Both the position numbers and the translations under genes were made by a program. 64,000 nt of DNA from a virus, in IMG/VR virus record IMGVR_UViG_3300025674_000028, positions 1 to 64,000 of that record. The stretch is one strand, 5' to 3'. Shown one piece after another: positions 5,507 to 46,537 of the stretch (the first letter of the stretch is position 1; every line of letters starts with the position of its first letter). The notes under the pieces were generated by a model. It searched no databases. It was not told where the DNA came from and saw nothing but the letters and a program-made list of their open reading frames with translations.

Positions 5507-5515
5507 CTTATGTCC
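5507..5515 (-). promoter_or_regulatory. Putative phage promoter motif GGACATAAG
   Basis: Intergenic; context AAAATCGGCTATTTAC-GGACATAAG closely matches the 7876 copy. Confidence 0.65.
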
Positions 5516-5596
5516 GTAAATAGCCGATTTTGTTAGGGTTTTTGAGGTCATAATGTATGGCCATTTGCCGTGGTTTTGAAGGGCTGACGAGGGGGT

Positions 5597-5655
5597 AAAA
5601 AAAACGCTCAACCCCAGGACGGGGGAGCGGCCCAGCAGGACGCAGGGGCTTTTTG
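5597..5655. terminator. Double-hairpin terminator (repeat copy T2)
   Basis: Minus strand CGCTC-CCCC-GTCCT-GGGG-TT-GAGCG-T8 preceded by a second GTCCT-loop hairpin; homologous to T1. Confidence 0.8.
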
Positions 5656-5661
5656 ACTCGA

Positions 5662-6462
5662 TCACGTCATCGGTCCGATGTCGTGATCATAGATTTCGGC
5701 GCCGTCGAGGTGAGCGCCGTCTAGGTCGGCACCTACGAGTAGAGCGCCGGTGAGGTCTGCACGGCGGAGGATGGCGCCTCTAAGGATTGCATAGGGAAGG
5801 AAAGAGTTCGACAAGTCGGCGCCCGTGAGGTCAGCGCCGGTGAGGTCGGCGCATGTGAGGTGGGCGCCGTCGAGGTCGGCGCAGCGCAGGTCAGCCCCCG
5901 TGAGGTTTGCGTTGGAGAGGTTTGCCCCCGCCCGCTTACCTTCTAGGGCGAGATCAGCGCCGCACAGGTCGGCGCAGCGCAGGTCGGCGCAGCGCAGGTC
6001 GGCGCCGGTGAGCTTTGCCTCGCGCAGGTCGGCGCAGCGCAGGTCGGCGCCGGTGAGGTCGGCGCCAGTGAGATTGGCGCCGTCGAGGATGGCGCTAGTG
6101 AGGTTGGCGCCGGTGAGGTTGGCGTCGGTGAAGTCGGCTTTGTCGAACACTTCGACCTCCGTGAGGATGGCGCCGGTGAGGTTGGCGCCCCTGAGGTCGA
6201 CCTCTGTGAAGATGGCGCCGGTGAGGTTGGCGCCGGTGAGGTTGGCGCACCGGAGATAAGAGCCGATGAGAACGGCGTTTGTAAGGTTGGCGCCGGTGAG
6301 GTTGGCGAGAGCGAGGTTGACGCCGGTGAGGATAGCGCTGGTGAGGTTGGCGCCCGTGAGGTCGGCGCCCGTGAGGTCGGCGCCGGTGAAGTCGGCGCCG
6401 GTAAAGTCGATGCCGGCCAGGTGCTGGCCGGCGCGGTCGACACCTTGAAAATTTGTGCGCAT
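5662..6462 (-). CDS. Pentapeptide repeat protein
   Basis: A(D/N)LTG and ADLRC repeats span almost the whole 266 aa; 15-nt DNA periodicity; AAGGAG SD. Confidence 0.95.
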
Positions 6463-6550
6463 ATCATCTCCTTATGCGCTATGCAACACCTTTGTGGCAG
6501 GCGTGTCGCTTACTCCCATGGGTTGCCAGCACAGCTATTGTGCGGGCAAC
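6457..6550 (-). repeat. Structured leader repeat, copy B (gene-proximal three hairpins only)
   Basis: Matches the gene-proximal ~94 nt of copies A and C. Confidence 0.85.
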
Positions 6551-6553
6551 GGC

Positions 6554-6578
6554 AAAAAAATATACGCAGCCGGCGTAT
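6554..6578 (-). terminator. Intrinsic terminator
   Basis: ATACGC-CGGCT-GCGTAT-A-T7 on the minus strand, downstream of ORF 6649-7650. Confidence 0.65.
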
Positions 6579-6648
6579 GCGGGTCACTCTCTTCCGGAGA
6601 ATGACAACGGGCGTATGTTTAACGACCTCGCCAGGTCGGGGCCGCGGC

Positions 6649-7650
6649 TCAATCCGTATGGATCACAACCGTGACCCGGTCGAGCCCGTGGACGCTCGAC
6701 CGGGTCGCGACAAGTTTCCCGTCGTGCAGCAGGCGCTGCACGCGGGAATCCCCGTCCACGCGGAAGGTTCCCCAGGCCCCGAGGCCCCAAACCTCAAGGG
6801 CCTCGAGGGTGTGTAGGGGGCTCCGGCGCATGATGCGCCAGAGGAGCGACGGAGTTGGAGAGGAGGCGAAATCCTCCATCTCCATCTCCGTCATCGGAGC
6901 GTCTTCTGGGAAATAGTAAGAGGGAGGGTTTTTTGCCCCCCATCCCCTCACGAGTTCCACTAACCGACGTTTTCTGTCGGCTCCGATCTCCTGCCCCTCT
7001 GCCCCCGCTAGGAGGAACGGCAGACGCTCACAGACTGCCTGCCGTTCGAGGCCCAAAGCGCGGGCCTCCTTTTCGGCAGAGAGCCGCTTTGTTTCCAAAG
7101 CGGCTCTCTGCCGAGCCTCCCTCTCGCGGCGCCTTAGACGAGGCCACACCTCGCCTAAGGAGAATTGAGCGCTGAAGACTCTCCCTTGGCGCTCTCGAAA
7201 CGCCCGCCACCACTCATGGTGGTATGGGTCACGCCGGAACGAGTCATCGTCATCGACCCATTCCCCGTAACTGCATGAGAGGTCGTCGGCCGCCTCCACT
7301 GCCTCAAAGAGGCAGTGGTACTCTTGCTCCAGCGTCTGCTGAAGCAAGAGTACGTAGGCGCTCCGCATGGAGCGCCAAGGGAAACCTGTCGGGCGGGCGG
7401 CGAGGTCTCCGTCCGCCCACTCGGCCAGGGCGCGATGCGCCTCGCACGTCTGCCGGCCCCACCCTGTGAGGCCGGAGATGTACGCGAGGGTGACCTCGCC
7501 AGCGCCGCCCGCTACGGCGCTGTTGTAGAGAGACTGCAACGCCTTGTCGCGCTCCAGCCCCTCCTCCCGACCCCCCGCGATGAAGCGGGCCTTTTCGATG
7601 AAGAGGTTGGTGTTGTTGGCGGCGTTGTTGGTGGGGTCCATCTTGCTCAT
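6649..7650 (-). CDS. Accessory hypothetical protein (start revised to ATG 7650)
   Basis: GGAG SD and the same position relative to the leader repeat as the starts at 4652 and 6462; GC-rich coding style. Confidence 0.7.
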   Translation of the reverse strand: MSKMDPTNNAANNTNLFIEKARFIAGGREEGLERDKALQSLYNSAVAGGAGEVTLAYISGLTGWGRQTCEAHRALAEWADGDLAARPTGFPWRSMRSAYVLLLQQTLEQEYHCLFEAVEAADDLSCSYGEWVDDDDSFRRDPYHHEWWRAFRERQGRVFSAQFSLGEVWPRLRRREREARQRAALETKRLSAEKEARALGLERQAVCERLPFLLAGAEGQEIGADRKRRLVELVRGWGAKNPPSYYFPEDAPMTEMEMEDFASSPTPSLLWRIMRRSPLHTLEALEVWGLGAWGTFRVDGDSRVQRLLHDGKLVATRSSVHGLDRVTVVIHTD

Positions 7651-7841
7651 GTCATCTCCATATGAGCAATGCAACACCTTTGTATCAGGCGTGTCGCTTG
7701 TACCTGTGAGTTGCCAGCACAACCATTGTGCTTCCAACAACTCGGTGCCTTCTCGGCATGGAGGATCTGCTCCCTCTAGGCTCACCACTTGAAGCAGGTG
7801 ACGCTTGCCCAGTGAATCCATGCAGGTCTTTGCGTGGAATT
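7645..7841 (-). repeat. Structured leader repeat, copy C
   Basis: 197-nt homologue of 4647-4843; begins about 35 nt downstream of the GGACATAAG at 7876-7884. Confidence 0.9.
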
Positions 7842-7875
7842 TGACCGTCACAATGGAGGTATGGCGGTCAACAGT

Positions 7876-7884
7876 CTTATGTCC
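7876..7884 (-). promoter_or_regulatory. Putative phage promoter motif GGACATAAG
   Basis: AT-rich intergenic region; followed by ACTG-TTGACCGC, like the plus-strand copies. Confidence 0.7.
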
Positions 7885-7941
7885 GTATATAGCTAATTTT
7901 ACACGGTTTTTTTCCTGTCTTTATAAGGCTTAAAAACGCTC

Positions 7942-7969
7942 TTTTGGACATAAGACCATTGACCGCACA
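7942..7969 (+). promoter_or_regulatory. Putative phage promoter (28-bp exact repeat of 35169-35196)
   Basis: TTTTGGACATAAGACCATTGACCGCACA, divergent from the 7876 copy. Confidence 0.75.
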
Positions 7970-8004: not shown

Positions 8005-8766
8005 ATGAACAACGTGGAAGGTGTGACCGTGAGCGATGAGGTAGCCAGCGCAATCATGGGCGCTCAGCCAAGCCAGTCGATGGCGTTTCATGCCAGTCAG
8101 GTCTACCAGCTGATAACAGACCCTGTGAAAATCACAGTCAACAACGGTCCAGACCAGCCGGGCCATATAGAGACGGTGCCACAAATCTCCCTGCTCCAGG
8201 AGATTTACAAAAACAGCGATGAGGTCCTTGCCAGAGTGCGCGAAGGTGTGGGGATTGTCTGCGAGCGACAAGACAAAAACAGCGAGGCAATCTGCAAGGA
8301 AGTGAAGAAGTACTGTGACACTGTGACGCAGACGCTGGCGGCGAACCAAGAGAAGCTGCAGGAAAATCAGACGGCAGGACACAACATCGTCTGCGGGAAG
8401 ATCCACGCCGCAGAAGAGCGCGTGTCGCACTATGCTCGCATGGGCATGGTGGCAAGCTGCGCAGCGGCAGTGGCAGCGCTTGCGGGCATGTTCTTCAGTC
8501 AGCGGTCTCCGTCTGCTCACGCCCCGCATTTCGCGCCACAGATGCACGATCAGCAGATGCACGCACAGCGAGCAAGGGAGCGGGCGCTGGCAGACAAGGT
8601 GGACAAGCTCACTGAGACGGTCAACCAACTGTCACAGTACGCGCAGGCGCAGCAGCCTGTCTTTGCTGCGCTTCAGCATCAGATGATTCGCCCAACCACT
8701 GTGTCGGCGGTCAACATCCCAACGCCTGCCGCAGCACAGACGGGCGACGCACCTTTGTTTGGCTAA
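8005..8766 (+). CDS. Gln-rich coiled-coil protein with one hydrophobic segment (putative early protein)
   Basis: AAGGAG SD before ATG 8005; MGMVASCAAAVAALAGMFF segment. Confidence 0.7.
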   Translation: MNNVEGVTVSDEVASAIMGAQPSQSMAFHASQVYQLITDPVKITVNNGPDQPGHIETVPQISLLQEIYKNSDEVLARVREGVGIVCERQDKNSEAICKEVKKYCDTVTQTLAANQEKLQENQTAGHNIVCGKIHAAEERVSHYARMGMVASCAAAVAALAGMFFSQRSPSAHAPHFAPQMHDQQMHAQRARERALADKVDKLTETVNQLSQYAQAQQPVFAALQHQMIRPTTVSAVNIPTPAAAQTGDAPLFG

Positions 8767-10676
8767 CTGTTGGCAAACTCTGCCAGCTCCATGTTTCGCC
8801 ACATCTTGGCTGACATGAGGTAGAGCAGGCTGTGAAAGGCGTCGTCTGGGTCTGTGTGGTTGTACTGCATCTGACGCAGCTTTGGTGAGCGATCGGCGTA
8901 GATGGTGAGGATATCCTGGGCGAAGCCTCCATCTAAGCGTGGAGGCCCGTCCATGATTTCCCATGAGGGCAACACCACGCGTCGATTTTTTAGCTGATTA
9001 AAGATCTTGGCCATCCACCGAGTCTTGTTGCATTGAAACTGGTTGCTTGTTGGATCCCAACTCATGATGGCTGATTGATTGGTGTATCGCATAGGAATGA
9101 AGCGACGCATGCCGTCTCGAATTCTTTCGCGCACGCCATCGATCATGCCCCAGCCAAAACCTGCATCGCAAAAGCAGATGTCAACGTGATTGGCTTCCAT
9201 GAGGTACGAAATCTCATCCCACAGGAACCGGGGGTCCGCTTCAACGCCCATGTACCTGCGCATAAAGAACACTTGGAGGACACTGCCCACCTCGGGGACG
9301 TGGTTGACGTACCCCATGCTCACGACAGTAAACGCGCCGTCGCCTGTACCCTCACCCCAGTCAATCCCCATGAAGACATCCCACGCAGGGTCAGCAAGCA
9401 CCTCTTTTGGCGCAAGGCGCTCTAGGGACGTGATGCCTGGGTGGCACAGCCTGATCAGCTCCTCTCGGCTTAGCGGCTTCTTTCCGCTGTCCCACGACAC
9501 GCCAAAGATCTCATTCATCTTTGACGCTTCAGACGCTGTGGGGTCATTGACATCTTGGTAGAAAGCCAGCCAACGCTCAGCGAAGCGGTCCCTGTCATAA
9601 ATTGATGTGTATGGCATCAAGCAGCGGCTGAGATGAAATCCTTCAAAGTCGCTGTCTAAGGCTCCCGTCCGTACCCAGTTGCAATGCTTGGACAAGGGAT
9701 TGATGGCGCGTCCGCATTTGATGCACAGCAGCCCCTTACGGCCAATCATGCGATCTACTTCATTGGGATTTTGGGGCGGAAAGTTAGGGTGGTTGCATCG
9801 GTCGCAAGGAATCAGCCACAGGTTCTTAGTTGAGCGCTTAGACCAGATTTGCTCAATGGGATTGTCAAAGGTCAGTGGCGTGCCACTGAATAGCGTGATG
9901 GCACCAAAGGGCAACTCACTGTTGTTGAGCGTGGCGGTGATGACGGGAATGTTGGCCATGACGAAATCCTGAATCTCATCAATGGCGAGCACGTCGGCCG
10001 CGATGCCGCGAACACGGTTGGCGTTTAGGTGCGCCGAGCGCATGACGATGCGGCTGTTGTTGCGTTTGAGTCGTTTGAAGAAGCGGTTGTAGTTGACGAA
10101 CCCACCGACAAACTGCTTGAGCCTCGGTGAGATGCGCAGCGTGTTGTCGACGCGCTCATCAGCAAACTCCTGCATGTTAAGTCCTGCGCTTGTCACGTAC
10201 AGCGCGCAGATGTTTGAGAGCATGCTGATGAACGTCCACAGCTTATTGCCAAGGCCAGTGGATTTTTCGGTCTGACGTGCGGCCTTGACCAGCGTCTTCC
10301 TTGCCAGCCGCGTAGACGCCTCGTCACCTCCTAAAGCGACAATACGCTTCTTTGTGTATTCGCTGTCGTAGATGGCCTTTTGCCACGGTCGCAGGTGCAG
10401 GCTGATGCTCTTTCCCATCGGGTTGCTGCGATCTGGCGCGTCAAAGTTAATCCGGTACTGCACAAACTCGCTTGGCAGCTCCGGCTGCGTAAACGCTCCG
10501 GGTCTCAGGCGTTTGGATGCGCGCTCCTGTGCCCACTGTACAGCACGGACATAAGCCTCTTGCTCGTCCCGCACATCGCTGCCCCGATCAAAGGGTACGC
10601 CTGTGCGCGGATCTATCACTTTTGTCTCTACGCCTACGGGTATAGAGCTCTGTACATTAACCAATGGAGAAGTCAT
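8763..10676 (-). CDS. terL: Terminase large subunit (lambda GpA-like, with Zn-ribbon)
   Basis: LRPWQ adenine-binding motif, ARQTEKST Walker A, LAIDEIQD Walker B, SGTP coupling motif, CxxC pairs, GIDWG and PDDAFHS nuclease motifs. Confidence 0.92.
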   Translation of the reverse strand: MTSPLVNVQSSIPVGVETKVIDPRTGVPFDRGSDVRDEQEAYVRAVQWAQERASKRLRPGAFTQPELPSEFVQYRINFDAPDRSNPMGKSISLHLRPWQKAIYDSEYTKKRIVALGGDEASTRLARKTLVKAARQTEKSTGLGNKLWTFISMLSNICALYVTSAGLNMQEFADERVDNTLRISPRLKQFVGGFVNYNRFFKRLKRNNSRIVMRSAHLNANRVRGIAADVLAIDEIQDFVMANIPVITATLNNSELPFGAITLFSGTPLTFDNPIEQIWSKRSTKNLWLIPCDRCNHPNFPPQNPNEVDRMIGRKGLLCIKCGRAINPLSKHCNWVRTGALDSDFEGFHLSRCLMPYTSIYDRDRFAERWLAFYQDVNDPTASEASKMNEIFGVSWDSGKKPLSREELIRLCHPGITSLERLAPKEVLADPAWDVFMGIDWGEGTGDGAFTVVSMGYVNHVPEVGSVLQVFFMRRYMGVEADPRFLWDEISYLMEANHVDICFCDAGFGWGMIDGVRERIRDGMRRFIPMRYTNQSAIMSWDPTSNQFQCNKTRWMAKIFNQLKNRRVVLPSWEIMDGPPRLDGGFAQDILTIYADRSPKLRQMQYNHTDPDDAFHSLLYLMSAKMWRNMELAEFANS

Positions 10677-11214
10677 GACTCTGCTCGAAAAAGTCTTGCG
10701 TCGCTATGGACGCATCGGCGGAAAGCTGCCGCCAAACTGCGAACAAGGTGCCTTGCTTAATATACAATGCGACGCTGAGAGCGAACAAATCGTAGACGAC
10801 AATAACCTCTATCTGATCTGCGACAACCTGTCTGGTCAGTGGCAGTGTTTACGGCGTGCGACGTGCTGGACGTGCTCAAAGGGCCGTGAAATGGCGCGAG
10901 ACGAGCTAGACGAGGAGTACGACTACTTTGTCGCTGACGCCGTACTGTCGTTACTTGCGCCCTGGCTAGATCAAGCTCCTCAAGGACATACCAGAGCCTT
11001 TTGCATTCACTGCGATGAAGGCGTCACCTTGGCCCATACCCCTGCTGACCTAATCACAGCAGGACTCATCGACAGTCCGTGCCTGCAATACCAGTCCTGC
11101 GCTCAATGTCCTGAAAGCGCAGAATGGGTGCAAACAGCAGTCTTTGCATTGATTGAAGAGGGATGGGAGGGCTCAGTCGGGCAGTGGGTACGCAATAGCC
11201 TGGGAATGCTTTAG
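10675..11214 (+). CDS. Cys-rich hypothetical protein (start revised to ATG 10675)
   Basis: GGAG SD at 10666; CWTC, CIHC and CAQC motifs; GGACATAAG at 10547 upstream. Confidence 0.6.
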   Translation: MTLLEKVLRRYGRIGGKLPPNCEQGALLNIQCDAESEQIVDDNNLYLICDNLSGQWQCLRRATCWTCSKGREMARDELDEEYDYFVADAVLSLLAPWLDQAPQGHTRAFCIHCDEGVTLAHTPADLITAGLIDSPCLQYQSCAQCPESAEWVQTAVFALIEEGWEGSVGQWVRNSLGML

Positions 11215-24023: not shown

Positions 24024-24025
24024 GG

Positions 24026-30664: not shown

Positions 30665-30677
30665 GTTGTCCTCTTTG

Positions 30678-35092: not shown

Positions 35093-35168
35093 CGTTTTTT
35101 GGCTCCGAATTAGACGTCGTGCGGCAGCCCATCGCAGGCTTACAGATCAGTAGAGTACACGAAACTGT

Positions 35169-35196
35169 TTTTGGACATAAGACCATTGACCGCACA
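35169..35196 (+). promoter_or_regulatory. Putative phage promoter heading the replication block
   Basis: 28-bp exact repeat of 7942-7969, located at the strand switch. Confidence 0.75.
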
Positions 35197-35240
35197 CGCC
35201 GACCTGCGTGTGCACTTTGTAAACCACAGAGGAGAAGACA

Positions 35241-36011: not shown

Positions 36012-36022
36012 CATTCCTGACA

Positions 36023-36060
36023 TGCACCCCCCTTCGTCCTGTTGGGGCGAAGGGGGTGCA
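36023..36060 (+). other. Strong intergenic stem-loop (processing, stability or termination)
   Basis: TGCACCCCCCTTCGTCCT-GTT-GGGGCGAAGGGGGTGCA; no U-tract. Confidence 0.6.
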
Positions 36061-36083
36061 CAAGCATCTCCATGAGGTTTTAC

Positions 36084-36248
36084 ATGTCAAACCCTTTCAG
36101 TCCCTTCTTTACGGATGCGACACGCCAGATTTCCCAGCAGCAGTTGATGGCAATGCTGATGCGCATTGAGCAGAGACTTGCTGCGATCGAAAAAAGACTG
36201 GAGCAAATCCAGGCACAGCAAAACTCAAAACCGCAGGAGACAAAATGA
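36084..36248 (+). CDS. Small coiled-coil protein
   Basis: GAGGT SD before ATG 36084; LMRIEQRLAAIEKRLEQI heptads. Confidence 0.6.
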   Translation: MSNPFSPFFTDATRQISQQQLMAMLMRIEQRLAAIEKRLEQIQAQQNSKPQETK

Positions 36249-37360
36249 CAACCGACGATGGCCGTGCTGATGCATGGAAAGGACATTACAAAGCCTGGCG
36301 CCACTGCCTCCGCTGTAAAAACGCTGATTGGCGCTGTCACCATGACCCCGACATCAACAAGCGCGCTACACCAACTCCAATGGCGGGATCACTGAAGACA
36401 TATACGAACTGGCGCAAGCCAAAAATTGTCAATCAGTTTCCGATCGTCTTGCTTCTACCTTTCCCGGACAGCGTTCAATCTTACTACGCCAGTCCTGTCG
36501 GCAACGTCAAAGACAATAAGGAAGAGTGGTCTCCTCAACTCCACGCACTTGTCAGCGTATGGGGTGATTTGGAAGGCAAGCTGCCTTACGACCTCGCAGA
36601 AATCCCCATCGTCTTTGCGTTAGGGTGTCGTCCCGTCAATTGGCGCCGGACGCGCGACGTTGTAGGTCCAAGTCAAACCATCCTGTCGTCGTGTCGGCGC
36701 AGATGGCAGGAGCAACTGCTGATGATTGACCCTGCGCTCGTGATTTCGTTTGGCCACTGGGGGCACGCGACTCTCTTTCCAAACGAAATGAAGAAAGGCG
36801 ACTACAGCGATTCTTTGGGCGAAGTCAAGACATTCTCAATTCCCTCTCCAAAGGGCAGTGTCAGTTACCCTGCCTATATTGCATATGATCCATATGTCGT
36901 TGCCGACAGAGCTCGAAATGACCAGTGGACGCGGCCCTTTAGTGCCCTCCCCACGTCATCGTCTGCCAAGCACCCCGTCGAGGCTTTACGCTGGGATATT
37001 TGGAGAGCCTGTTGGCTAGGCAAGGTTTTGGAGTTGTCTTCGCATGGGGAGTTTACCTTGCCGGGCGTTGATGAGGGACTGGATGAGTGGGTATCTATGG
37101 TCACTGCGCTAAACGACTTTTATGACGGACGAGACCATGTGACGGATGCAGTCAGTCAAGTTGAAGGGTATGTTGACTATCTGACAAAGGTTGAGACATC
37201 GCCCCAGAATGTGCGCCTAGCACAGTTGGGTGAGATACCTGCCGAACGGCCTAAGACACACATCTTTAACAAGATCGGCGCGCACCGTAAAAGAAGCATG
37301 AACGCAGATATGGAGGACTTCGACGATGGAGATTCCACAAGCCCTTCGACGCAAAGTTAA
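36245..37360 (+). CDS. Uracil-DNA glycosylase family 4-like protein, degenerate active site
   Basis: CLRC...CRP...C cluster ligands and QLLMIDPALVISFG motif; GE(A/G)PG and HP motifs absent. Confidence 0.7.
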   Translation: MTTDDGRADAWKGHYKAWRHCLRCKNADWRCHHDPDINKRATPTPMAGSLKTYTNWRKPKIVNQFPIVLLLPFPDSVQSYYASPVGNVKDNKEEWSPQLHALVSVWGDLEGKLPYDLAEIPIVFALGCRPVNWRRTRDVVGPSQTILSSCRRRWQEQLLMIDPALVISFGHWGHATLFPNEMKKGDYSDSLGEVKTFSIPSPKGSVSYPAYIAYDPYVVADRARNDQWTRPFSALPTSSSAKHPVEALRWDIWRACWLGKVLELSSHGEFTLPGVDEGLDEWVSMVTALNDFYDGRDHVTDAVSQVEGYVDYLTKVETSPQNVRLAQLGEIPAERPKTHIFNKIGAHRKRSMNADMEDFDDGDSTSPSTQS

Positions 37361-37649
37361 GCCTGCCCTTAAGCGCCTAGCCTTACTGGGCGTGATGGTG
37401 TGGAGACTTAAGAAAAGTCCACTGAGGCAAAAGCAACAACTTCGTAAGGATTTGCGTCAGGCTGGACACGACTTGCTCAACAACGTGCTCGCTGTTCTTG
37501 ACCCATTCTTAGATACTGTCGCTTCCTTTGAGTTTGATGAGTTGCAGGTACATCTTAAGAAAGAAGATGGTGACTCAATCAAAGTGTACGTCGAGATTTG
37601 CGGTGAACACCGCATACTGACGACGACCTGGCAGTTTGATGCCCTCTAA
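37326..37649 (+). CDS. Hypothetical protein
   Basis: GGAGG upstream; fills the operon gap. Confidence 0.55.
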   Translation: MEIPQALRRKVKPALKRLALLGVMVWRLKKSPLRQKQQLRKDLRQAGHDLLNNVLAVLDPFLDTVASFEFDELQVHLKKEDGDSIKVYVEICGEHRILTTTWQFDAL

Positions 37650-37663
37650 ATTTAGGAGTCCAA

Positions 37664-38443
37664 ATGTTCGACCTACACCGCAACTTTAAGTCGTCCATCT
37701 CCATCAACGACTTGGTCTTGCTGGGCGTCAAAAAACAGGGCCTGACAATCAGTGTGCGAAAACTTGATGTCTCATTGTGCAATGAGATGGCCCCGTTTGA
37801 AATGGACGTCGAAGTAGACACGCTCTTGAAGCATATGCTGATGGACGCCGAGGCAGAGAAGAGCACACTTTTGCCTTGGCCTGATGAGAGGGCGTGGGTC
37901 AATCTCCAGCGGCAGAAACTGGGCATACATGAGCAGCAAGCTACCTTCGTCTCGATGCTTGACGGCCTCTGGGGCCTTATCACGAAGTGGCTCGGACATA
38001 AGACGCCTGAATTCCTGCTCCAGCTGAGTGAGAAGAGCAAGACGGCGGGCAAGACATTTGGATATACGCTGGAGCCAGCGATCGTCGTTGTGAAGAAGCT
38101 TGACGTTGAACATTTTAAAGACAACGTGTTCGTCTTCCCTCACGTACTCGCCAGCCTCGACCGTATGACGCACGCATCGTCCGCCATCATGCACTCGCGC
38201 TTTATTGCGTCTCCGACTGAGCAAGAGAAGGCGGGCTCATTGCACGCCAACTTAGAACACGCCATTACTCTAGAAGCGTTTGACAATCTTCCAGAAGATC
38301 TTCAACACGACTTGAGGCAGGCGGTAGAACAGATGCAGACAATCATCTGCATGTACACGTCCATAGCCACAATGGCTGTGACCATGCGGCGCATTGAGCG
38401 TCACTTTACAAATGAAGACACCACGGAAAAGGCCATAAATTGA
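37664..38443 (+). CDS. Hypothetical protein
   Basis: AGGAG SD; 259 aa. Confidence 0.7.
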   Translation: MFDLHRNFKSSISINDLVLLGVKKQGLTISVRKLDVSLCNEMAPFEMDVEVDTLLKHMLMDAEAEKSTLLPWPDERAWVNLQRQKLGIHEQQATFVSMLDGLWGLITKWLGHKTPEFLLQLSEKSKTAGKTFGYTLEPAIVVVKKLDVEHFKDNVFVFPHVLASLDRMTHASSAIMHSRFIASPTEQEKAGSLHANLEHAITLEAFDNLPEDLQHDLRQAVEQMQTIICMYTSIATMAVTMRRIERHFTNEDTTEKAIN

Positions 38444-38461
38444 GCTTACCAGGGAGGGTAA

Positions 38462-40057
38462 ATGAACAGCCCGATACACGAGCTGTGCCGAAATAATGAG
38501 GACGCCGAAGTCCTGGCAGCGATGGCTGTCACGAAAGACTTCAAGGCTCTCTTAGATGGCACTGTCGATCCCAGATTTATGAGGGAGGAGCAAAGAAAGA
38601 TCGCCCAAGTGATCATAGACAGGTACTCCACTGACGTTGACTGGCCACCGAGTTTTGATGCGCTCTTGGCTGAGTTTGGAGCCAGGGCGTGTTTTCCCGT
38701 TGGATGGACAAAGAAGGACATGCAGGGCTTAAACCTGAACCACTACATTACGCGGTTCAATGCTCAGGCACGCGCATGGGCCATGCAGGACGTTGCCATT
38801 AAGTTGTTTCGCAGCGTCCATACGCTTATCGGGGAGCACGACAGCGCGCAAGAAGAGGCTATAAGGGAGTTTGCACGCGAAGCGCGCAACATCAGCGACA
38901 TCGGCAAGCCACGACAAGGCGCTTACGTCGTCGGTCAGAACCTTGAAGACATTCGGGCGGAAATTACAGGCAAGCGAACACGTACGAGCCTGTGTCGAAC
39001 ACACATCCCTATGCAAAATGCGCTGATTAGAGCGTATGAGCCTGGGGTGTATCTTTGGTTTTCAAGGATGAAGAACGGCAAGACTCACGAACTCAATCAG
39101 ATTGTGATTGAGAACGCCGTTGAGGCCGGACTTCGTGGCGTGTACGTCGATAGAGAGAACAACCGCAAAGACATCTTGACCAGGATGGCGTGTGCCATTG
39201 TCGGTGCGCCGTACCACCACTTCAAGTCTCTGGCCCTTAAAGTGCACCACTATGACCGTACTCACCAACGAGGAAAGTATCCTCTTGCAGACTTTGATAA
39301 GCATCTCTTTGAGCTTGTCATGGACTCGTTTGAGGAGCTTGCCGCCACAGGTGCGCTGGCAATCATTGACAAGACTGCGAACCAACAAAACCTGCGTGAC
39401 CCAAGCCGCACTTCGTCCTTTTTTACCATCAACGAGGTGTTGCGGGCCGCAGATAAACACGATGCGCAGTGGGTGGCATTTGACCAAATCCAACGCTACG
39501 AAATCGACAACCTGCGCAAAGGCGCTGCTGCAAATGAGCGAATGGAGAAGACGTTTGCGCTGCTCGACAGCTATGACGACCGCATCTTCTTTGGGACTTG
39601 TCAGGAAAACCGCGAAGGCGTGGATGAAGACACGCAAATGCACTTCCCAAAAACAGCACACATTTACGGAGGTGACACCGCCGCCCAGATGTGCAGCTAC
39701 CTGTGTCACGTCAGGACGGTACGCATGATCCACCCCGTCCTTTACAAGGACATCTATGGCATCGAACGCCAAGCCAAGTTTATGCGCTGCTTCACACCAC
39801 TGCTGAACAGGCCAGGTGAAGACGCAGGGACGCACGCTCGATGGTTCGGTCACTTGGACCACTACAGTTACAGTGAGTACCTGCCGGGGGACATCGGCTT
39901 TCCCATGTTCGAAGGGGTTATCGGAGATGCCCGAGAGGCTGCTGGGCTGCCTCGTGACTGGAAAGAAAAACCAGGAAAGAAATCCGCGAAAGCCGGCAAG
40001 TCCATGGGCAAGATGCCGTCATCGTTCACGTCGTTCTCATCCGACGACGACGAGTAG
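38462..40057 (+). CDS. dnaB: Replicative DnaB-like (SF4) helicase
   Basis: SRMKNGKT Walker A, VYVDRE, VAFDQIQ Walker B, CQENR motif; adjacent to the primase. Confidence 0.8.
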   Translation: MNSPIHELCRNNEDAEVLAAMAVTKDFKALLDGTVDPRFMREEQRKIAQVIIDRYSTDVDWPPSFDALLAEFGARACFPVGWTKKDMQGLNLNHYITRFNAQARAWAMQDVAIKLFRSVHTLIGEHDSAQEEAIREFAREARNISDIGKPRQGAYVVGQNLEDIRAEITGKRTRTSLCRTHIPMQNALIRAYEPGVYLWFSRMKNGKTHELNQIVIENAVEAGLRGVYVDRENNRKDILTRMACAIVGAPYHHFKSLALKVHHYDRTHQRGKYPLADFDKHLFELVMDSFEELAATGALAIIDKTANQQNLRDPSRTSSFFTINEVLRAADKHDAQWVAFDQIQRYEIDNLRKGAAANERMEKTFALLDSYDDRIFFGTCQENREGVDEDTQMHFPKTAHIYGGDTAAQMCSYLCHVRTVRMIHPVLYKDIYGIERQAKFMRCFTPLLNRPGEDAGTHARWFGHLDHYSYSEYLPGDIGFPMFEGVIGDAREAAGLPRDWKEKPGKKSAKAGKSMGKMPSSFTSFSSDDDE

Positions 40058-40072
40058 CTTTAGGGAGACAAT

Positions 40073-41254
40073 GTGGTGGCCGAAAAGAACGTGCTTGAAG
40101 ATATTCTGGCGCAAGCTCAGGCGTCGTATGAGATCTTTCTTGCAGACGGACTCGACCCTGTTGGTGAAGCACGCCGACAGGTGGAGGTCGCAATTAAGGA
40201 GGTGTCTGGACAACTGAAAAAAGTTCGTCCTGTGGAGTACCGAGGAAAGACAGAGCTGTGGTCTTTGTGCCCCTTCCACGACGATCGCAATGTCGGCAGC
40301 TTTTCAGTCGACAGCAGTACCGGCAATCACTTTTGCTGGGTCTGCGGGGCACAAGGTGGACTTGTCTCACTGCTAAAGCACTTCGGGCTGTGGACTCAGA
40401 AGATGCGCAGCGCTTTTAAGGATATAGATCTCACTGCCCTGCTTAAAGGCACGTCAGACCGCGGCAAAGTACAAAGCCTTACGCCTCTTCCAGAGGCGCT
40501 GTTGGCCCATATCAAGCAATACAGGCCTCGGCGCTATGTCTCAAAAGGGCACATGCGTCACATCCTCGACAACATGGAGGTCTGCTACGATGATCAGCAT
40601 CAGAGAATCTGCTTCCCAGTACGAAGCGCAACTCAGGACTTGGTGGGGATACAATCAAGGGTTGCGTTTGATACGTCTCAGCATCTGCGCTGGAAATGGT
40701 ACCGATTTGAGTTGGGTGACATGCAGAAGTATTTGCTGGAGCCTGAGTTCTTAGATGCCTACGAGCCGCCGCGCAGCACTGTCTTCTACAACGAGCATCA
40801 AGTGCTGATTCCGCTGGCTCAGGGCGCAATCGACTGCGTCGTAATCGTTGAGGGCATGGGAGGTGCGCTGCGCGTCATGGCTGCGGGGTATCCTGTACTT
40901 GCCACATTTGGCACTCGTATGGGTGCAGGTCAGAAACAGCGCATGCTTAACGCACTGCGTCAAAGCGTCATTTCACGGCACGGACATAAGGTCCGTGTCG
41001 TACTGGCTCACGATGGTGACGCGCCTGGTCGTCAGGCAGCGCTTGAAGTGCTGTTCTACCTGGGCATGGAGGCTGACTGCGTTCTTGCTGAACTGCCGCA
41101 GGGGAAAGACCCTGAAGACCTGACTCCTGCCGCACTGCGTCATACCCTGAGCTCCGCTCAGAGCCTGGATAAAGTCACATCGGACGTTTGGAATGACGCA
41201 CTGTGTCAGTACTTGGCAACAACTACAAAGCACAAAAAAAGGGAGGCGCCCTAA
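40073..41254 (+). CDS. dnaG: DNA primase (CHC2 Zn finger + TOPRIM)
   Basis: CPFHDD...SFSV...CWVCG; VIVEG; HDGDAPG; GKDP. Confidence 0.92.
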   Translation: MVAEKNVLEDILAQAQASYEIFLADGLDPVGEARRQVEVAIKEVSGQLKKVRPVEYRGKTELWSLCPFHDDRNVGSFSVDSSTGNHFCWVCGAQGGLVSLLKHFGLWTQKMRSAFKDIDLTALLKGTSDRGKVQSLTPLPEALLAHIKQYRPRRYVSKGHMRHILDNMEVCYDDQHQRICFPVRSATQDLVGIQSRVAFDTSQHLRWKWYRFELGDMQKYLLEPEFLDAYEPPRSTVFYNEHQVLIPLAQGAIDCVVIVEGMGGALRVMAAGYPVLATFGTRMGAGQKQRMLNALRQSVISRHGHKVRVVLAHDGDAPGRQAALEVLFYLGMEADCVLAELPQGKDPEDLTPAALRHTLSSAQSLDKVTSDVWNDALCQYLATTTKHKKREAP

Positions 41255-41271
41255 ATATTAAGACGCCTCCC
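41234..41271 (-). terminator. Antisense-oriented intrinsic terminator-like hairpin
   Basis: GGGAGGCG...CGCCTCCC stem preceded by A7 on plus, giving a U7 tail on minus. Confidence 0.5.
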
Positions 41272-41288
41272 AACGGAGCTTCTATAGC

Positions 41289-42782
41289 ATGACCGAAACA
41301 CAACCCAACCCAACTGCGCAACCATTGCCATCGAACTTGCCGATGTTCCCCGCAATGGTGTCAGCCCCCAGGAGGATCACTCGCAGTATGAGAACCAATA
41401 AGCAGACTGTCAATGGTCAAAAGTCGATGCGGTGTCGCATCGGAGACTATGCGTTCTGGTCTCCTCGATTGTCCCCCATGTATTGGGTGGAACGACAGAA
41501 GACCGTGTTGATGCGCTTGATGCCCGTCCATCACTGTAAGCGACAAACACTCTACCAAGTCAGAACCCCTGCCGACGTCAGCGTGCTTCCAAAGTGGATG
41601 CGGCCCTACGCACACAACAAGTACTACCTCGGCCCACTTTCCAGCCCTTCGTTTCCGGTATTTGATGACAATTGGACTGCCGACAGGCGATGGGAGTCCA
41701 TGATGATCGATGACGCTTACAAAGGGATGCGACTTGAACGAGGGGCAATCACTGTCGAGATTCAGGAAAAAGCTGAAAATGTGTGGAGACTTTTGAGCGC
41801 CCCGGAGCACATCCCTCAATTTTCCGCAGTTAGCAGTGATTTGAGACTGCGTGAGCTGCAATTCAGGTGCGAGTGCATCATTCAAGAGTGTTTTCACAAC
41901 CCGCTGGGCATGCAGGCGACGACGGACGCACTGACTAAAGACTACAAGCAGAGACAGGTCGTAGAACGCGATGTTTACCTTGCGCCGGGGTATTGTATGG
42001 CTTGGTGTAAATACGTCGATGCCGGCTCAGACAAGCTTGGCAAGATGCAGCCGGATGGCGATTATCCGATGCGCAAACCGTTAGGGAATGGCATGCCATA
42101 CGCTCGGCTGGGTATGACTTGGCTGGAACTGTCCAATGACGCCTTGAGCCCTAAATACGCCAGCACGGTAAACTACCACAAACACGCACTTTCGGTTTTT
42201 CACATCTGCAAAACGTGCTCCGCCGACCAACGCTATCCGTCACTTGAGAAGTATCCCCGCATCCACTTCTCTGACCCCTTCGAATGTAAGCACTGCATTC
42301 GTGTGCTGAGCAAGGATGACATAGCTTACGACCGACGATTCTTTGCCGGTGCGACAACCGAAGAGTTGGCTATGCACGCACTCTCCCCATGTGAGTGTCC
42401 GTCGTGCGGTGCAGTGGATACGCCCAAGGTGAAGTTGACGTGCAGCAATCCTGACTGCAAGAACCCCCAACCGACTGCACTTGATGACGTCATCACTTAC
42501 GCAAAGAAAGACTCTGCGGGCGTCTGGCAGTTTGGCGTCTTTTACATTGACGCAATGCCGTCATTACTGCCACGATGGGAAGATGTCATTGCATCTTACC
42601 CTCAAAATATCGGCAGCCTGAACGTCCCTGCAAACGTCAAAGATGGGTACTACGATCAGTTCGATCCATGTAAAGCCGGGTACTACGTTTATCTCTCGGC
42701 ACCAGATCAAGTCCGCTTCTTGGGAAGTGACTTGTTTAATCCCAGCAGCGAGGCTGCTGAACAACGGAGGTTTGAAGAATGA
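41289..42782 (+). CDS. Multi-Zn-ribbon protein in the replication module
   Basis: CKTC, CKHC, CPSC and CSNPDC; GGAG SD. Confidence 0.65.
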   Translation: MTETQPNPTAQPLPSNLPMFPAMVSAPRRITRSMRTNKQTVNGQKSMRCRIGDYAFWSPRLSPMYWVERQKTVLMRLMPVHHCKRQTLYQVRTPADVSVLPKWMRPYAHNKYYLGPLSSPSFPVFDDNWTADRRWESMMIDDAYKGMRLERGAITVEIQEKAENVWRLLSAPEHIPQFSAVSSDLRLRELQFRCECIIQECFHNPLGMQATTDALTKDYKQRQVVERDVYLAPGYCMAWCKYVDAGSDKLGKMQPDGDYPMRKPLGNGMPYARLGMTWLELSNDALSPKYASTVNYHKHALSVFHICKTCSADQRYPSLEKYPRIHFSDPFECKHCIRVLSKDDIAYDRRFFAGATTEELAMHALSPCECPSCGAVDTPKVKLTCSNPDCKNPQPTALDDVITYAKKDSAGVWQFGVFYIDAMPSLLPRWEDVIASYPQNIGSLNVPANVKDGYYDQFDPCKAGYYVYLSAPDQVRFLGSDLFNPSSEAAEQRRFEE

Positions 42783-43441
42783 AGCCACAACTTGCGATGC
42801 CTAACGTCATGGGCAAAGAGATGAAAGAGCGCGTCCGTCTGGCGCAGTTTACCGCCGCGCTGTCCTTACCAGAAACGGCTGAAGACATGGGGTTAGAGTT
42901 TGAACGAGGTGCGGACGGAGCCCCATTGCCAGCAGACGTCAGTTCGGCAAACGCTGACGCCTCGTACTTTGCCACCGTGACGAGCGCCATGCTCACGATG
43001 GCGGCGTACAACATCTTCTTTGCGTCTCAGGACAAGCTTAGAAGAACCAACATTTTGCAGGTCGCAAAGGAAATCGAGCGTACATTCGAAGTCGCGTGGG
43101 TTCGACTTGACGCATTTAAGCTGCGTCCTGAAGGACAAGACCTCCCCCTGATTATTCGCAGGCACATCGCATCATACTTCGTCGCGGTCGGAACTGCCGT
43201 CGATCCTGATTTTCTAGAGGTTCTGCGAAAGGCGACAATCAACTGTCCAACCACACTGCCGCCTACAGACGAGAATTATCTCATCAGTAAGGTGTTCGCA
43301 TTGCTGATGGCAGACAGCGAAACACAGGCTCAGTGGCATCAAGCTCGACTCGCAGTTGAACGAGACGCAAAGAAAGCGAAGCAGGCGCTGATGCGCAAGC
43401 GCCTTAAGAACAAACGCAAGAGTAAAGAGGACAAAGCATGA
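42779..43441 (+). CDS. Hypothetical protein with basic C-terminus
   Basis: ATGA coupling on both sides. Confidence 0.7.
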   Translation: MKPQLAMPNVMGKEMKERVRLAQFTAALSLPETAEDMGLEFERGADGAPLPADVSSANADASYFATVTSAMLTMAAYNIFFASQDKLRRTNILQVAKEIERTFEVAWVRLDAFKLRPEGQDLPLIIRRHIASYFVAVGTAVDPDFLEVLRKATINCPTTLPPTDENYLISKVFALLMADSETQAQWHQARLAVERDAKKAKQALMRKRLKNKRKSKEDKA

Positions 43442-46059
43442 GATTTTCATCGAGGGGTCAGCTGCCAGACTCCCAGTGGATCTGCCACCCAAAAGACGTG
43501 GAGCGTGTCGCGCAAGCTCTTGTCGATTATCAAGGCATGTATGGCTTTGACACTGAGACAGATGGCCTTGGCTACACGATAGAAAAGGTCAAACGCAAAA
43601 GCACGGGGCAAAAGAGTGTTAGTGAAGACCATGCCGGAGATGGCCTCGGCGCTTATCTGGAGGTCGTTTGTCTCGCATTTGACAACCAGCGCTACGGCAT
43701 CGACGTTGGCCATGAGTTTAGAGACAACTTGAACATCTTGGCTCCCGCGATATGGGAGACGCAAGAGTACTCTTGCTGCTTCAATGCAATCTTTGACTGG
43801 AACGTGTGGGAGTACAACCTTCAAGGCAAATACTCCCTGACCACCTGCTACGCCGATGGGCTGACCTTATGGCAGCTGTGGGATGAGGACGCGGAGGACA
43901 CTCACGGCAAGCGCGGACTTAAAGCTCGCAGCAAGCACTATCTCGGCATCAACATGTCCAGCTTCGGCGATCTTATCTTGAAGCAAGGCGGAATCCGACA
44001 ATGTCTGCGAGACAGAAAGCTCGCAAAGCGCACCCGTAACTATTGCTCTAGAGACGCATGGGCGCACCTAGGCATCTGCGCACTGGGAGAGCGCCTGGCT
44101 CGAAACCTGACGTGGTGCATGCTGTGCCCAAAGTGCGACAACCCTGCATACCAGCGCAACCACATCACAAAACAGTGGGTTTGTGCGGACTGTGGCGATG
44201 TCAATGGCGGCAAGATGCTGTCTATGTGGGACTGGCACAAACAAAAAGACATTCCGTTTTTGCAGATTCTCAAGGAGATGGAGCAGGATGGCGTACCAGT
44301 CAGTGAACAGTACATGCGACAGTTCATTGAGCCGCTTGAACAGTCACTTCAAACATCGCTTAAGCAGTTCCAACGCGAAGCCAGCGATGCGCTGGTTAAA
44401 CTTGGTGGAGACCCTGTAGAAATCACGCCAAGCTCTCAACAGCTTTCAAAGTTCTACTTTCAAGACTTTGATGTGACAGGCAAGCGCGTGGGTCTTGGAC
44501 TGCCAGTCATTGAGCGTACAGATGCAGGAGGAGCGTCCACGACAGAAAAAGTGATGGACGAGCTGACGGTGCGATTCCAAGCGCCAGGCACGACCTCGTT
44601 GATGCGCTACAGAAAGATCGAAAAGATTCTGTCTACATACGCGGAAGGAGCGACGGCGTGCATCTGGGATGACACAAACAGGGTTCACCCAAAGATTCGA
44701 CCAGACACGGCCACAGGTCGGTGCAGTTGTCGCCGGCCAAACATGATGAACCTACCGCGAGACCCACTGCAATTCGAGGTCAGTGCAGTTCAGCCTCTGC
44801 CAGCAGAGACGGTCGAACAACTCGCGACTCTGTGGGGCATCGCTGAGTCTGAAGCTCAAGCAGAATTTGACAAGCCATGTTACCACCCATCGAAGTACGC
44901 CATTGAGGTGCGGCGCGCCGTGGTAGCACCGCCTGGCTACAGTCTTGTCGGGGCTGACTACGCTCAGCTTGAAGTCAGACTGACTGCTGCAGAGAGTCAG
45001 GACAGTAAGCTGATTGACATCATCAACACAGGCAAAGACATGCACAGCTACACGGCATCAATCGTGTACGCGGCGCAAGTCCCTGGCCTTTCCTACAACG
45101 ACATTGTGGAGGCAAAGAAATGGAAGGACGTTGAGGGTCCAGAAACCTACGCATCAAAGCCTGCGTTGTATCGATTCGCGACGCTGGGGAAGATGCTGCG
45201 CAGTAAGCGTGACTTCGATGAGGTATTGACCATGCGTTGCCAGCACATGTCTGGAGGCGAAAGGTCGCAGGTGAGGTCGAGTGTTGAAACCGCGGTGTCC
45301 AATATAACCAGCGCCCTGAGTGCGCGCGACATGCTTGGGGCAGCACAACACAAGATGATTGATGCGGTTGCGCTGGGAGCGTCTGATTCGTGCGTTGCTG
45401 AAGGCATCTCGACGATCGAAGCCTTAATGTCTGTGTGTACTGCTGAAGACATAGACGCTTGCTTCTCAGTGCTCGGCGCTAAAGACAAGGAGCTGCGCGA
45501 TTTCAGGCAGGCGGCCAAGAACGCCATCTTTGGCATCATCTACGGCATCGCAGGAGTCGGCTTAGCGGTGCAGATAACCAAGGCCACGGGCGTTGTTTGC
45601 GCCCCTGAAGACGCTCAGAAGATTATCGAGTCAATCAAGACCGAAGCCTACCCAGGCATAGGCATTATGATTGAGCGCCTGCATGAAACTGCAAAAAAAT
45701 ACGGATACGTCCGCACTCAGATGGGGAGATACCGGCACCCCGCAGGCGTCCACTCCGGTAACCATCGACATGTCGGGCGTGCGCTGAGGCAGGCAGGCAA
45801 TGCCCCTATTCAAGGCCTTGCGGCCAACATCATGCAAACCATCATGATTGCGCTTCGGCGCGATCCGAAATGGAATGGCATGAAGGCGCGCATGATTATG
45901 CAGGTCCATGACGAACTCCTGTCGCTGGTTCCTGAAGAGCACGCCGATGATGCGCTAGCCCTACAAATTCATCACATGGAGACAAGTCATCGCCTCGTTA
46001 CTCCATGCCATCTGGCGGCAGAGGGCGGAGTCGCTAAAGTCTGGTGTGATATTAAGTAG
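43438..46059 (+). CDS. polA: DNA polymerase family A with 3'-5' exonuclease
   Basis: FDTET (ExoI), FNAIFD (ExoII), YCSRDA (ExoIII), TATGR, ADYAQLEVR (motif A), RQAAKNAIFGIIYG (B), NAPIQG, QVHDEL (C). Confidence 0.96.
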   Translation: MRFSSRGQLPDSQWICHPKDVERVAQALVDYQGMYGFDTETDGLGYTIEKVKRKSTGQKSVSEDHAGDGLGAYLEVVCLAFDNQRYGIDVGHEFRDNLNILAPAIWETQEYSCCFNAIFDWNVWEYNLQGKYSLTTCYADGLTLWQLWDEDAEDTHGKRGLKARSKHYLGINMSSFGDLILKQGGIRQCLRDRKLAKRTRNYCSRDAWAHLGICALGERLARNLTWCMLCPKCDNPAYQRNHITKQWVCADCGDVNGGKMLSMWDWHKQKDIPFLQILKEMEQDGVPVSEQYMRQFIEPLEQSLQTSLKQFQREASDALVKLGGDPVEITPSSQQLSKFYFQDFDVTGKRVGLGLPVIERTDAGGASTTEKVMDELTVRFQAPGTTSLMRYRKIEKILSTYAEGATACIWDDTNRVHPKIRPDTATGRCSCRRPNMMNLPRDPLQFEVSAVQPLPAETVEQLATLWGIAESEAQAEFDKPCYHPSKYAIEVRRAVVAPPGYSLVGADYAQLEVRLTAAESQDSKLIDIINTGKDMHSYTASIVYAAQVPGLSYNDIVEAKKWKDVEGPETYASKPALYRFATLGKMLRSKRDFDEVLTMRCQHMSGGERSQVRSSVETAVSNITSALSARDMLGAAQHKMIDAVALGASDSCVAEGISTIEALMSVCTAEDIDACFSVLGAKDKELRDFRQAAKNAIFGIIYGIAGVGLAVQITKATGVVCAPEDAQKIIESIKTEAYPGIGIMIERLHETAKKYGYVRTQMGRYRHPAGVHSGNHRHVGRALRQAGNAPIQGLAANIMQTIMIALRRDPKWNGMKARMIMQVHDELLSLVPEEHADDALALQIHHMETSHRLVTPCHLAAEGGVAKVWCDIK

Positions 46060-46369
46060 GCTTTCGACCTGCACAAAGGGCGTGATCACAAACACTGGCA
46101 CCCTCTCTGAATGCTTAGCTTTAGAGTGTTGGAGGTACATCTAAAATAGTGGTGACCCGTGGCTGGTAAGCACAGATGTCTCTATCATGGTGGGGAGCAG
46201 AAGTGTGCGGCCTCGTGCCTGATAATACCGGGTACGAGGCCTTACATTTCGCAACCAAGATATCTGCTTGTCAGGTGTCTAAAAACTTGCCAGGGATCTC
46301 GGTCAGTCGGTACATTGACATGCTGAGACCTGTCAGCAACGGCAGCATGTGGGCTGCAGGAGGAACATC

Positions 46370-46537
46370 GTGGAAAAGAACAGCGTCGTGCAGAAGAACA
46401 AGCCGCAAGTATTGCGGCTTGGACATAAGACCAGCGCCAGACGCCCTGAGCCTCGCTGCCCTGTATGCGGTAAAGACGCAATGCAAGTAGGTCAGACTTT
46501 GAAATGTCCAGACCACGGCTCTAGGCCCTGGGAGTGA
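46370..46537 (+). CDS. Small Zn-finger protein
   Basis: AGGAGG SD before GTG 46370; CPVCG...CPDHG. Confidence 0.65.
   Translation: MEKNSVVQKNKPQVLRLGHKTSARRPEPRCPVCGKDAMQVGQTLKCPDHGSRPWE

Follow-up and report, generated by a model that had tools for sequence, protein, structure and literature searches.

The record IMGVR_UViG_3300025674_000028 of the IMG/VR database is a contig of a single virus, 73,229 bp long, and the stretch analysed here (the window) comprises its first 64 kb. The subject of this work is a nine-nucleotide word, GGACATAAG, which recurs along the window and which an initial annotation had proposed as the promoter of an RNA polymerase encoded by the phage itself. Matches to known families are few among the gene products. 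The gene identifications give the genome two long leftward structural operons and two non-structural regions, the latter at about 4.3-8.8 kb and 35.1-49.9 kb and amounting to about 27% of the genome. The first structural operon runs from 35092 down to 8763 and encodes the portal protein, a fused RNA polymerase, large unknown proteins and, as its final gene, the large terminase (8763-10676, minus strand); the second is the tail block, extending from beyond 64000 down to 49918 (a baseplate wedge protein is encoded at 60720-63935). Between them lies a rightward non-structural module (35241-49940, plus strand) with the genes of a primase, a DNA polymerase, a Cas4-like nuclease and unknown proteins. 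The 3' end of the contig (genome positions 73019-73229) consists of 39-nucleotide tandem repeats and at its 5' end (window 1-1156) it opens within a gene; circular permutation of the record, or a cut in a gene rich in repeats, is the probable cause. All named phages are remote from this virus: a megablast search with 10 kb gave no match among them, the best tblastn identity was 28%, and a single-protein locus search gave no match.

The word is present in eight exact copies, located, as the initial annotation had stated, at 5507(-), 7876(-), 7946(+), 10547(+), 35173(+), 37994(+), 40982(+) and 46421(+). In 100 dinucleotide-preserving shuffles it occurred 0.25 times on average and twice at most, eight copies being reached in none of them. 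Under an order-3 Markov model GGACATAAG is the most over-represented 9-mer of the whole genome (50,176 words tested), with 8 copies seen against 0.34 expected (Poisson probability 3e-9). No further copy is present in the final 9 kb of the genome, which lie beyond the window, and one-mismatch variants number only five, which is about the chance level. When the window was scanned with a weight matrix built from all sites described below, the eight sites scored 17.8-24.7 and every other position 15.0 or less. A search of IMG/VR with the exact 19-base extended pattern gave no match. The genome-wide bias in strand and position, which had been named as a test of the promoter hypothesis, is present: all eight copies lie in or beside the non-structural regions and are co-oriented with the downstream gene, and their orientation switches once in the window, between 7876 and 7946. 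The claim that all of them point into non-structural genes thus holds, with the nuance that 10547(+), antisense in the terminase gene, points into an unknown gene of 179 codons. No copy lies in sense within the portal-polymerase-terminase operon or the tail operon, the only one inside them being this antisense copy.

The full signal is GGACATAAG-(6N)-G, about 16 nucleotides, and its last base is the predicted transcript start; the copies are described here with this extension. Copy 1 (5500-5515, minus strand; the word itself at 5507-5515, predicted start at G 5500) follows a terminator-like hairpin with a T8 run (5591-5646, minus strand), which ends the unit upstream of it and has a 73% identical copy at 4339-4394, and precedes a structured leader and gene 5363-4977, with a strong ribosome site at 5363. 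Copies 2 (7869-7884, minus strand; predicted start at G 7869) and 3 (7946-7961, plus strand; predicted start at G 7961) form a back-to-back divergent pair 61 nucleotides apart. The former leads into a 219-nucleotide repeated leader and then gene 7650-6649; the predicted start of the latter is 44 nucleotides before the ATG at 8005 (Shine-Dalgarno sequence AAGGAG) of gene 8005-8766. Copy 4 (10547-10562, plus strand) is antisense in terminase codons 41-44, and its predicted start, G 10562, is 113 nucleotides before the ATG of the 179-codon gene at 10675. The palindrome GTCATGAC (window 10673-10680) contains the starts of both the terminase gene (minus strand) and this gene (plus strand), back to back; there is no intergenic space between the two genes, and therefore the promoter of each must lie inside the other gene. 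Copy 5 (35173-35188, plus strand; predicted start at G 35188) occupies the 148-nucleotide divergent gap between the start of the structural operon at 35092 (minus strand) and the ATG of the replication module at 35241, and its site is conserved in three relatives (L002, L015 and L016, see below). On the structural-operon side of the same gap (35140-35150, minus strand) the sequence TGTAAG stands about 50-58 nucleotides before the first start codon; it is shared with L002 (about 5520-5530), is absent from L015, and could be a late-promoter element or a chance occurrence.

The remaining three copies (37994, 40982 and 46421) are distributed over the 15-kb replication module at intervals of 2.8 to 5.4 kb. 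Copy 6 (37994-38009, plus strand) lies inside the open reading frame (ORF) 37664-38443, as a candidate internal promoter 453 nucleotides before gene 38462, and copy 7 (40982-40997, plus strand) inside the primase gene (40073-41254), as a candidate internal promoter 292 nucleotides before gene 41289. Copy 8 (46421-46436, plus strand) falls inside ORF 46349-46537, in the interval from the end of the DNA polymerase gene (46059) to gene 46596; a 10-bp hairpin (46399-46421) is immediately adjacent to it, and its position 15 is C instead of T. This ORF (plus strand, 55-62 amino acids), between the DNA polymerase and nuclease genes, shows a zinc-ribbon pattern CPxCG...CPDHG. The caveat of the initial annotation that three copies lie in frame as Gly-His-Lys codons is accurate and concerns just these: 37994 (ORF 37664-38443), 40982 (primase) and 46421 (the zinc-ribbon ORF). 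The second sense frame of the word contains a TAA stop, so that just two sense frames are open. A protein-coding cause of the in-frame copies was considered and rejected, since in the primase the GHK residues (304-306) fall in a stretch that is not conserved in the relatives L002 or G002.

The boundaries of the signal were read from a column profile of 25 sites, in which the eight copies of the window were aligned with sites from relatives. Position 16 is G in all eight window copies and in 24 of the 25 sites; position 15 is a pyrimidine in every one of them (T in 20, C in 5), and position 10 is A in 20. These three columns were never part of any search pattern. By our own arithmetic, the chance of finding G at position 16 in eight copies out of eight is about 3e-5, G making up about 27% of the bases. 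The extended pattern is obeyed equally by intragenic and intergenic copies, and we therefore argue that the intragenic ones are not accidents of coding. As to the sequences adjoining the word, three copies are indeed followed by AC-NN-TTGACCGC, namely 7876(-), 7946(+) and 35173(+). The upstream A-tract attributed to the intergenic copies fared less well: runs of A do occur upstream of 5507, 7876 and 7946, but their distances differ and no upstream column is well conserved in the profile. The A-tract was accordingly rejected as a component of the signal, its position not being conserved and the sites of the relative G001 being without it.

Among bacterial promoter classes, the sigma70 -10/-35 pair, already discounted in the initial annotation, does not apply. 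Such a pair has TTGACA-like and TATAAT-like hexamers 16-18 nucleotides apart, with A at position 2 and T at position 6 of the second hexamer; in a simple scan no sigma70-like match coincides with any of the copies, and matches are about as frequent as chance would give (4 as against 2.7 and 12 as against 9.7 in shuffled sequence). The last base of the -10-like hexamer at the sites is G or C. Sigma54 promoters carry GG at -24 and GC at -12, ten bases apart; at the sites described here the conserved GG (positions 1-2) and YG (positions 15-16) are three bases too far from each other, and the second element is TG, not GC.

Conservation of the signal was followed in relatives, given here with the identity of their RNA polymerase to that of the window. 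The contig L002 (63%) carries the exact 9-mer with T15 and G16 in the same divergent gap, pointing into the replication genes; this copy is the single one in 28 kb, and the gap is flanked by orthologues that are only 27-36% identical. The near-identical contigs L015 and L016 (43-44%) have the exact word, again with T15 and G16, in the equivalent divergent gap of 132 nucleotides, 45 nucleotides before a start codon. In all three contigs the copy is oriented away from the polymerase gene, at a distance of about 4.4 kb on its upstream side. By our own arithmetic, about 1 of 1500 trials would place a given 9-mer in a gap this large with the orientation observed. L001 (49%) covers structural genes only and has zero copies.

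A sister version of the signal was found in G001, a 99-kb IMG/VR record of 63% G+C with a polymerase 48% identical to that of the window. A blind word count of this genome placed GGCCATAACA first (12 copies against 0.07 expected, Poisson probability 1e-23), and the signal there has the form GGCCATAAC-(6N)-G, in 15 copies (GGCCATAA[C/T/G] sites). The word differs from that of the window at positions 3 and 9 only, and A10 and Y15-G16 are kept. Eleven of the 15 sites are located within 100 nucleotides upstream of a co-oriented ORF; there are two back-to-back site pairs, and, as in the window, one pair stands immediately beyond the terminase gene's end and a single site at its start. The orientation of the sites switches at least six times, following the local gene direction each time, which removes the explanations linked to replication or packaging. 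The G001-type word GGCCATAAC also occurs in the window at 30714-30722 (minus strand), inside the end of the portal gene and 50 nucleotides before the polymerase start codon at 30664; considered as a site it was rejected, as it has neither A10 nor Y15-G16 and falls below the scan cut-off, and it is probably due to chance.

At larger distances the motif disappears into the background. In G002 (polymerase 31% identical; L033-L037) the motif class was counted 3 times against 1 for the reversed control, other distant loci were likewise at control level, and in 31 loci with portals 24-31% identical the class gave 19 against 28 for the reversed control. G002 has an over-represented word of its own, CAAGGGCAAG, with sites, for example, at 9831+, 49809+, 51015+, 56155-, 58284- and 60026-, whose strand switches between the genome halves; it may be the promoter of that phage.

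The presumed reader of the signal is a fused beta-beta' RNA polymerase (24026-30811, minus strand; an ORF of 2261 amino acids, called in the database as 2212 amino acids from 30664). It matches the Pfam domains Rpb2_6 (7e-39), Rpb1_2 (8e-21) and Rpb1_5 (6e-22), and the residues D1503, D1505, G1506 and D1507, which hold the aspartate triad, are invariant in 13 homologues. The chain thus has the parts of a two-barrel RNA polymerase: a beta catalytic domain, a beta' active-site domain with the aspartate triad and a bridge/trigger domain. Homologues 42-65% identical are encoded on phage-sized metagenome contigs, fused forms at greater distance are numerous, and at least 50 contigs of this kind with fused homologues were retrieved by the family search. 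Within the scanned proteins of the genome the polymerase is the sole recognisable transcription component: PHROGs and/or Pfam searches covering about 48 predicted proteins detected no sigma-family domain.

Directly upstream of the polymerase gene lies a gene for a protein of 756 amino acids (30678-32948, minus strand), which was considered as a transcription factor and rejected, as its fold is that of a portal protein (Foldseek E 2e-6, probability 1.0, to the portals of lambda, T4 and other phages). A CxxC...CxxC zinc ribbon in this protein is invariant in 19 homologues, several of which are interrupted by inteins. The position of the portal gene places the polymerase gene in the virion and packaging operon. 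Polymerases carried in the virion are known from N4, phiKZ and crAss-like phages, and the location of the gene right after the portal, in an operon ending with the terminase, suggests by analogy that the polymerase of this phage is made late and carried in the particle. Another neighbour is an all-helical protein of 295 amino acids (32953-33840, minus strand; structure predicted with a pLDDT, a local confidence score, of 83), whose gene adjoins the portal and polymerase genes also in L002, L001, L015 and L016 and which is a candidate polymerase partner. It had no sequence match in the PDB, Atlas offered no useful match (best 0.79), and it gave no Foldseek match at E 0.001 or better (best VIA Z 4.6).

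The promoter interpretation is thus supported, each prediction that could be examined at the level of sequence having turned out as expected: the strand and position bias, the extended motif with a purine at the distance expected of a start, the orthologous conservation and the sister motif in G001. The word is common to phages that differ in base composition and share the fused polymerase. On balance, we hold it probable that the copies are promoters of a phage-specific system, read most likely by the phage's own single-chain beta-beta' polymerase, alone or with a phage factor. The preference for this enzyme over the host polymerase with a phage factor rests on parsimony and on the analogy with the virion polymerases of jumbo phages. 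As a sub-model we prefer an early class of promoters read by a virion-delivered polymerase, the arguments for and against it being about evenly balanced. More tentative, and in our opinion doubtful, is the stricter proposal that the signal is a complete promoter, in which the virion-delivered single-chain polymerase opens the -10-like word without any sigma factor.

The proposed mechanism is as follows. The polymerase carried in the virion would read the promoters immediately after infection. The word GGACATAAG, at about -15 to -7, would act as a -10-like element, with no -35 element; it would be followed by a six-nucleotide spacer, usually with A as its first base and with a pyrimidine as its last, and the following G would be the first transcribed base. 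This layout equals that of the mapped promoters of phage multisubunit polymerases, and transcripts are therefore predicted to begin at the conserved G, that is, at 5500(-), 7869(-), 7961, 10562, 35188, 38009, 40997 and 46436. The promoters would drive the small genes of the 4.4-8.8 kb region, the single gene that lies opposite the terminase gene and, through copies 5 to 8, three of them as internal boosters, the 15-kb replication module; the two structural operons, one of which encodes portal, polymerase and terminase, lack the signal.

In about 40% of the 25 sites the transcripts would run at once into a stem-loop. Stem-loops of at least 6 bp starting at positions 15-23 are present in 10 of the 25 sites as against 14% of 4000 random places (binomial p 0.0015), and we infer that such 5' structures would protect the transcripts. 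The example in the window is a hairpin with an 8-bp stem and a 6-nucleotide loop (35192-35213, plus strand), four bases after the predicted start of copy 5; its counterpart in L002 has the same dimensions (8 bp, 6 nucleotides) and the same place but a different sequence. In promoters of the N4 virion RNA polymerase a conserved DNA hairpin upstream of the start site is the recognition element; here the hairpins are on the downstream side of the conserved G, have differing sequences and accompany only 10 of the 25 sites.

The leaders of the 4.3-8.8 kb region have features of their own. A leader of 95 nucleotides is present there in three copies on the minus strand (4646-4745, 6456-6555 and 7644-7743), each ending at the start codon of a different gene, and two of them extend to 219 nucleotides with 84% identity (4644-4862 and 7642-7860). 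The consensus fold comprises three hairpins, in the last of which the loop contains the ribosome site and the 3' arm the AUG; compensatory changes occur in 4 of 28 pairs, and no Rfam family matches. The repeated leader looks like a shared translational operator. In the same region, gene 5662-6462 (minus strand) contains 15-nucleotide periodic repeats in 29 registers and matches PHROG families of unknown function; it belongs to the presumed early genes and probably encodes a pentapeptide-repeat protein. At 4417-4489 (minus strand), inside the 3' part of a small ORF, the Rfam family gyrA RNA is matched below threshold (28.5 bits, gathering threshold 45, E 3.5e-4), probably by chance.

RNA data were available as assembled contigs of one metatranscriptome run, representing 7% of the sampled words. 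One contig (depth 5) begins at 35197, nine nucleotides after the predicted start of copy 5, but contigs cannot show starts. A strain about 96% identical (run X8) covers four of the motif sites.

Several points weigh against the reading given above. The deepest contig of these RNA data (46360-46619, depth 6.4) runs across copy 8 and ORF 46349-46537, with the same proviso that contigs do not reveal starts. The three copies in sense within ORFs and the one antisense in the terminase gene are candidate promoters only. The motif does not follow polymerase identity strictly, since L015, at 44%, keeps the word of the window and the variant is found in G001, at 48%. The evidence does not single out the polymerase among the conserved phage proteins as the partner of the motif, and the relatives that have the motif share many genes. 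In G001 the portal gene is elsewhere and copy 31123(+) heads the operon holding the polymerase gene, so that the scheme of an enzyme made late, packaged and reading the early genes cannot hold there unchanged. Finally, the 295-amino-acid candidate partner has no fold match to a sigma or initiation factor, and the scan for sigma domains left out about 10 predicted genes, mostly those beyond base 64000.

The main rival explanation is that the sites are promoters of the host RNA polymerase core, which a sigma-like factor encoded by the phage would direct to them, the phage polymerase serving other genes. There is a model for this in the late promoters of T4, a -10-only element read by gp55. The sites would suit it in being extended -10-like, with G near -14, A near -11 and Y-1/G+1 at the canonical distance, and a divergent sigma factor could be hidden among the phage proteins, most of which belong to no known family. 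However, the proteins scanned yielded no sigma-family domain, the position of the bacterial T-7, which is flipped out and bound by sigma according to the excerpted text of PMC7598289, is occupied by G or C here, and phages whose G+C content differs (53% and 60-63%), and whose hosts probably differ as well, have the identical word. Besides, the phage already encodes a complete catalytic polymerase with its aspartate triad. Taken together, these considerations make the host-core explanation unlikely.

Less probable still is that the word is a binding site travelling with promoters or leaders, either the operator of a regulator or a leader signal of the ops/nut type on which an antiterminator is loaded. 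The strict orientation and the placement in 5' regions would fit a leader element as well, and so would the palindromic sequences that follow several copies (35192-35213, with the same form in L002). Yet the word is asymmetric and not a palindrome of the dimer type, upstream of it there is no other conserved promoter element, sigma70-like matches being at chance, and the fixed 6N-G spacing is a feature of start sites. In G001, moreover, copies 66538- and 66543+ overlap back to back, and another copy ends 16 nucleotides before a start codon, with the ribosome site six nucleotides after it; this leaves no room for a separate upstream promoter unless transcripts overlap. As for a DNA signal unrelated to transcription (Chi-like recombination, replication or packaging), which the single orientation switch in the window (7876/7946) would fit if the signal were centred on replication, it is very improbable in view of the many gene-following switches in G001, the closeness of 11 of its 15 sites to start codons and the avoidance of two thirds of the window's genome by the copies.

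Returning to recognition by the fused phage polymerase, its consequences deserve mention. Phages with fused cellular-type RNA polymerases are common in water metagenomes, and in the searches made we found none that is cultured and nothing in print on promoter recognition by the fused enzyme. With the 16-nucleotide signal defined, its start base predicted and a natural variant known from a sister phage, promoter recognition becomes a simple question for in vitro work, and the signal lets the genes of such phages be sorted into temporal classes from sequence alone. If the sigma-free version of this reading is true, GGACATAAG and GGCCATAAC constitute a natural pair of orthogonal enzyme-promoter systems, and the two bases by which they differ point to the enzyme residues that read the promoter; a compact, sigma-free cellular-type enzyme with a short exact promoter would then be of interest for orthogonal expression systems.

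Compared with known systems, what was found is, on strong statistical grounds, a real and conserved promoter-type signal of a known general kind, for which we found no description in this lineage and with this enzyme architecture. Bacterial extended -10 promoters of the sigma70 class resemble it in that a G stands near -14 and an A near -11, that the start lies at a fitting distance and that Y-1/R+1 is preferred, and differ in that it has no -35 element, G or C at the T-7 position and C at the T-12 position. Promoters of the T7 type are likewise one exact, phage-specific word along the non-structural genes, with internal boosters, and likewise diverge between sister phages together with the enzyme; they are, however, longer and span the start site, and the T7-type enzyme belongs to an unrelated family, the domains here being Rpb2_6, Rpb1_2 and Rpb1_5. 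The RNA polymerase-encoding Caudovirales termed mReC (Weinheimer and Aylward, 2020, PMC7481178) are, like the phage studied here, uncultured tailed phages with beta and beta' homologues; the main text of that paper, as far as available, does not contain "promoter", "virion" or "early genes". A literature search combining mReC with RNA polymerase and phage brought up no transcription follow-up among the matches listed, and the matches listed for the motif words themselves were, by title and abstract, unrelated to phages.

The closest parallels are in the jumbo phages with multisubunit polymerases of their own, here taken from excerpts of the published accounts. The late promoters of AR9, read by its non-virion polymerase with the specificity subunit gp226, have the form AACA-(6N)-T-A/G+1 (PMC5312081, PMC7598289) and share with the signal of the window a short element, a six-nucleotide spacer and the succession of pyrimidine (-1) and purine (+1); their element is, however, of only four nucleotides, is read on the template strand and needs uracil DNA, whereas here the word has 9-10 nucleotides. 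The early promoters of AR9 are a 13-nucleotide element-(6N)-G+1 (PMC5312081), and in those of phiKZ and phiR1-37 the start site is six nucleotides after the element (PMC5312081, PMC7598289). The virion enzyme of AR9 tolerates almost no deviation from the consensus, and internal and antisense copies of its early promoter are known (PMC5312081, PMC7598289). An over-represented motif upstream of early operons can be found in every jumbo phage with its own polymerases, and wherever tested it was the early promoter (PMC7598289). The differences are as follows: the jumbo-phage elements are AT-rich, in contrast to GGACATAAG with four G/C bases out of nine and GGCCATAAC of G001 with five; the jumbo-phage polymerases consist of four or five polypeptides, while a single chain of about 2200 amino acids unites beta and beta' here; the genomes exceed 200 kb, as against 73 kb; and carriage of the polymerase in the virion would here follow from gene position alone, unlike in the jumbo phages, and in G001 the polymerase gene does not adjoin the portal gene and sits behind a copy of the motif. 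The similarities concern the signal itself and its presumed reader. In both cases a near-invariant, over-represented word of about 10 nucleotides lies near -10 upstream of early or non-structural operons and is followed, after six nucleotides, by a conserved purine (here the predicted start); single mismatches are not tolerated, and the reader, presumed in the case of this phage, is a phage-encoded two-barrel polymerase of the cellular type.

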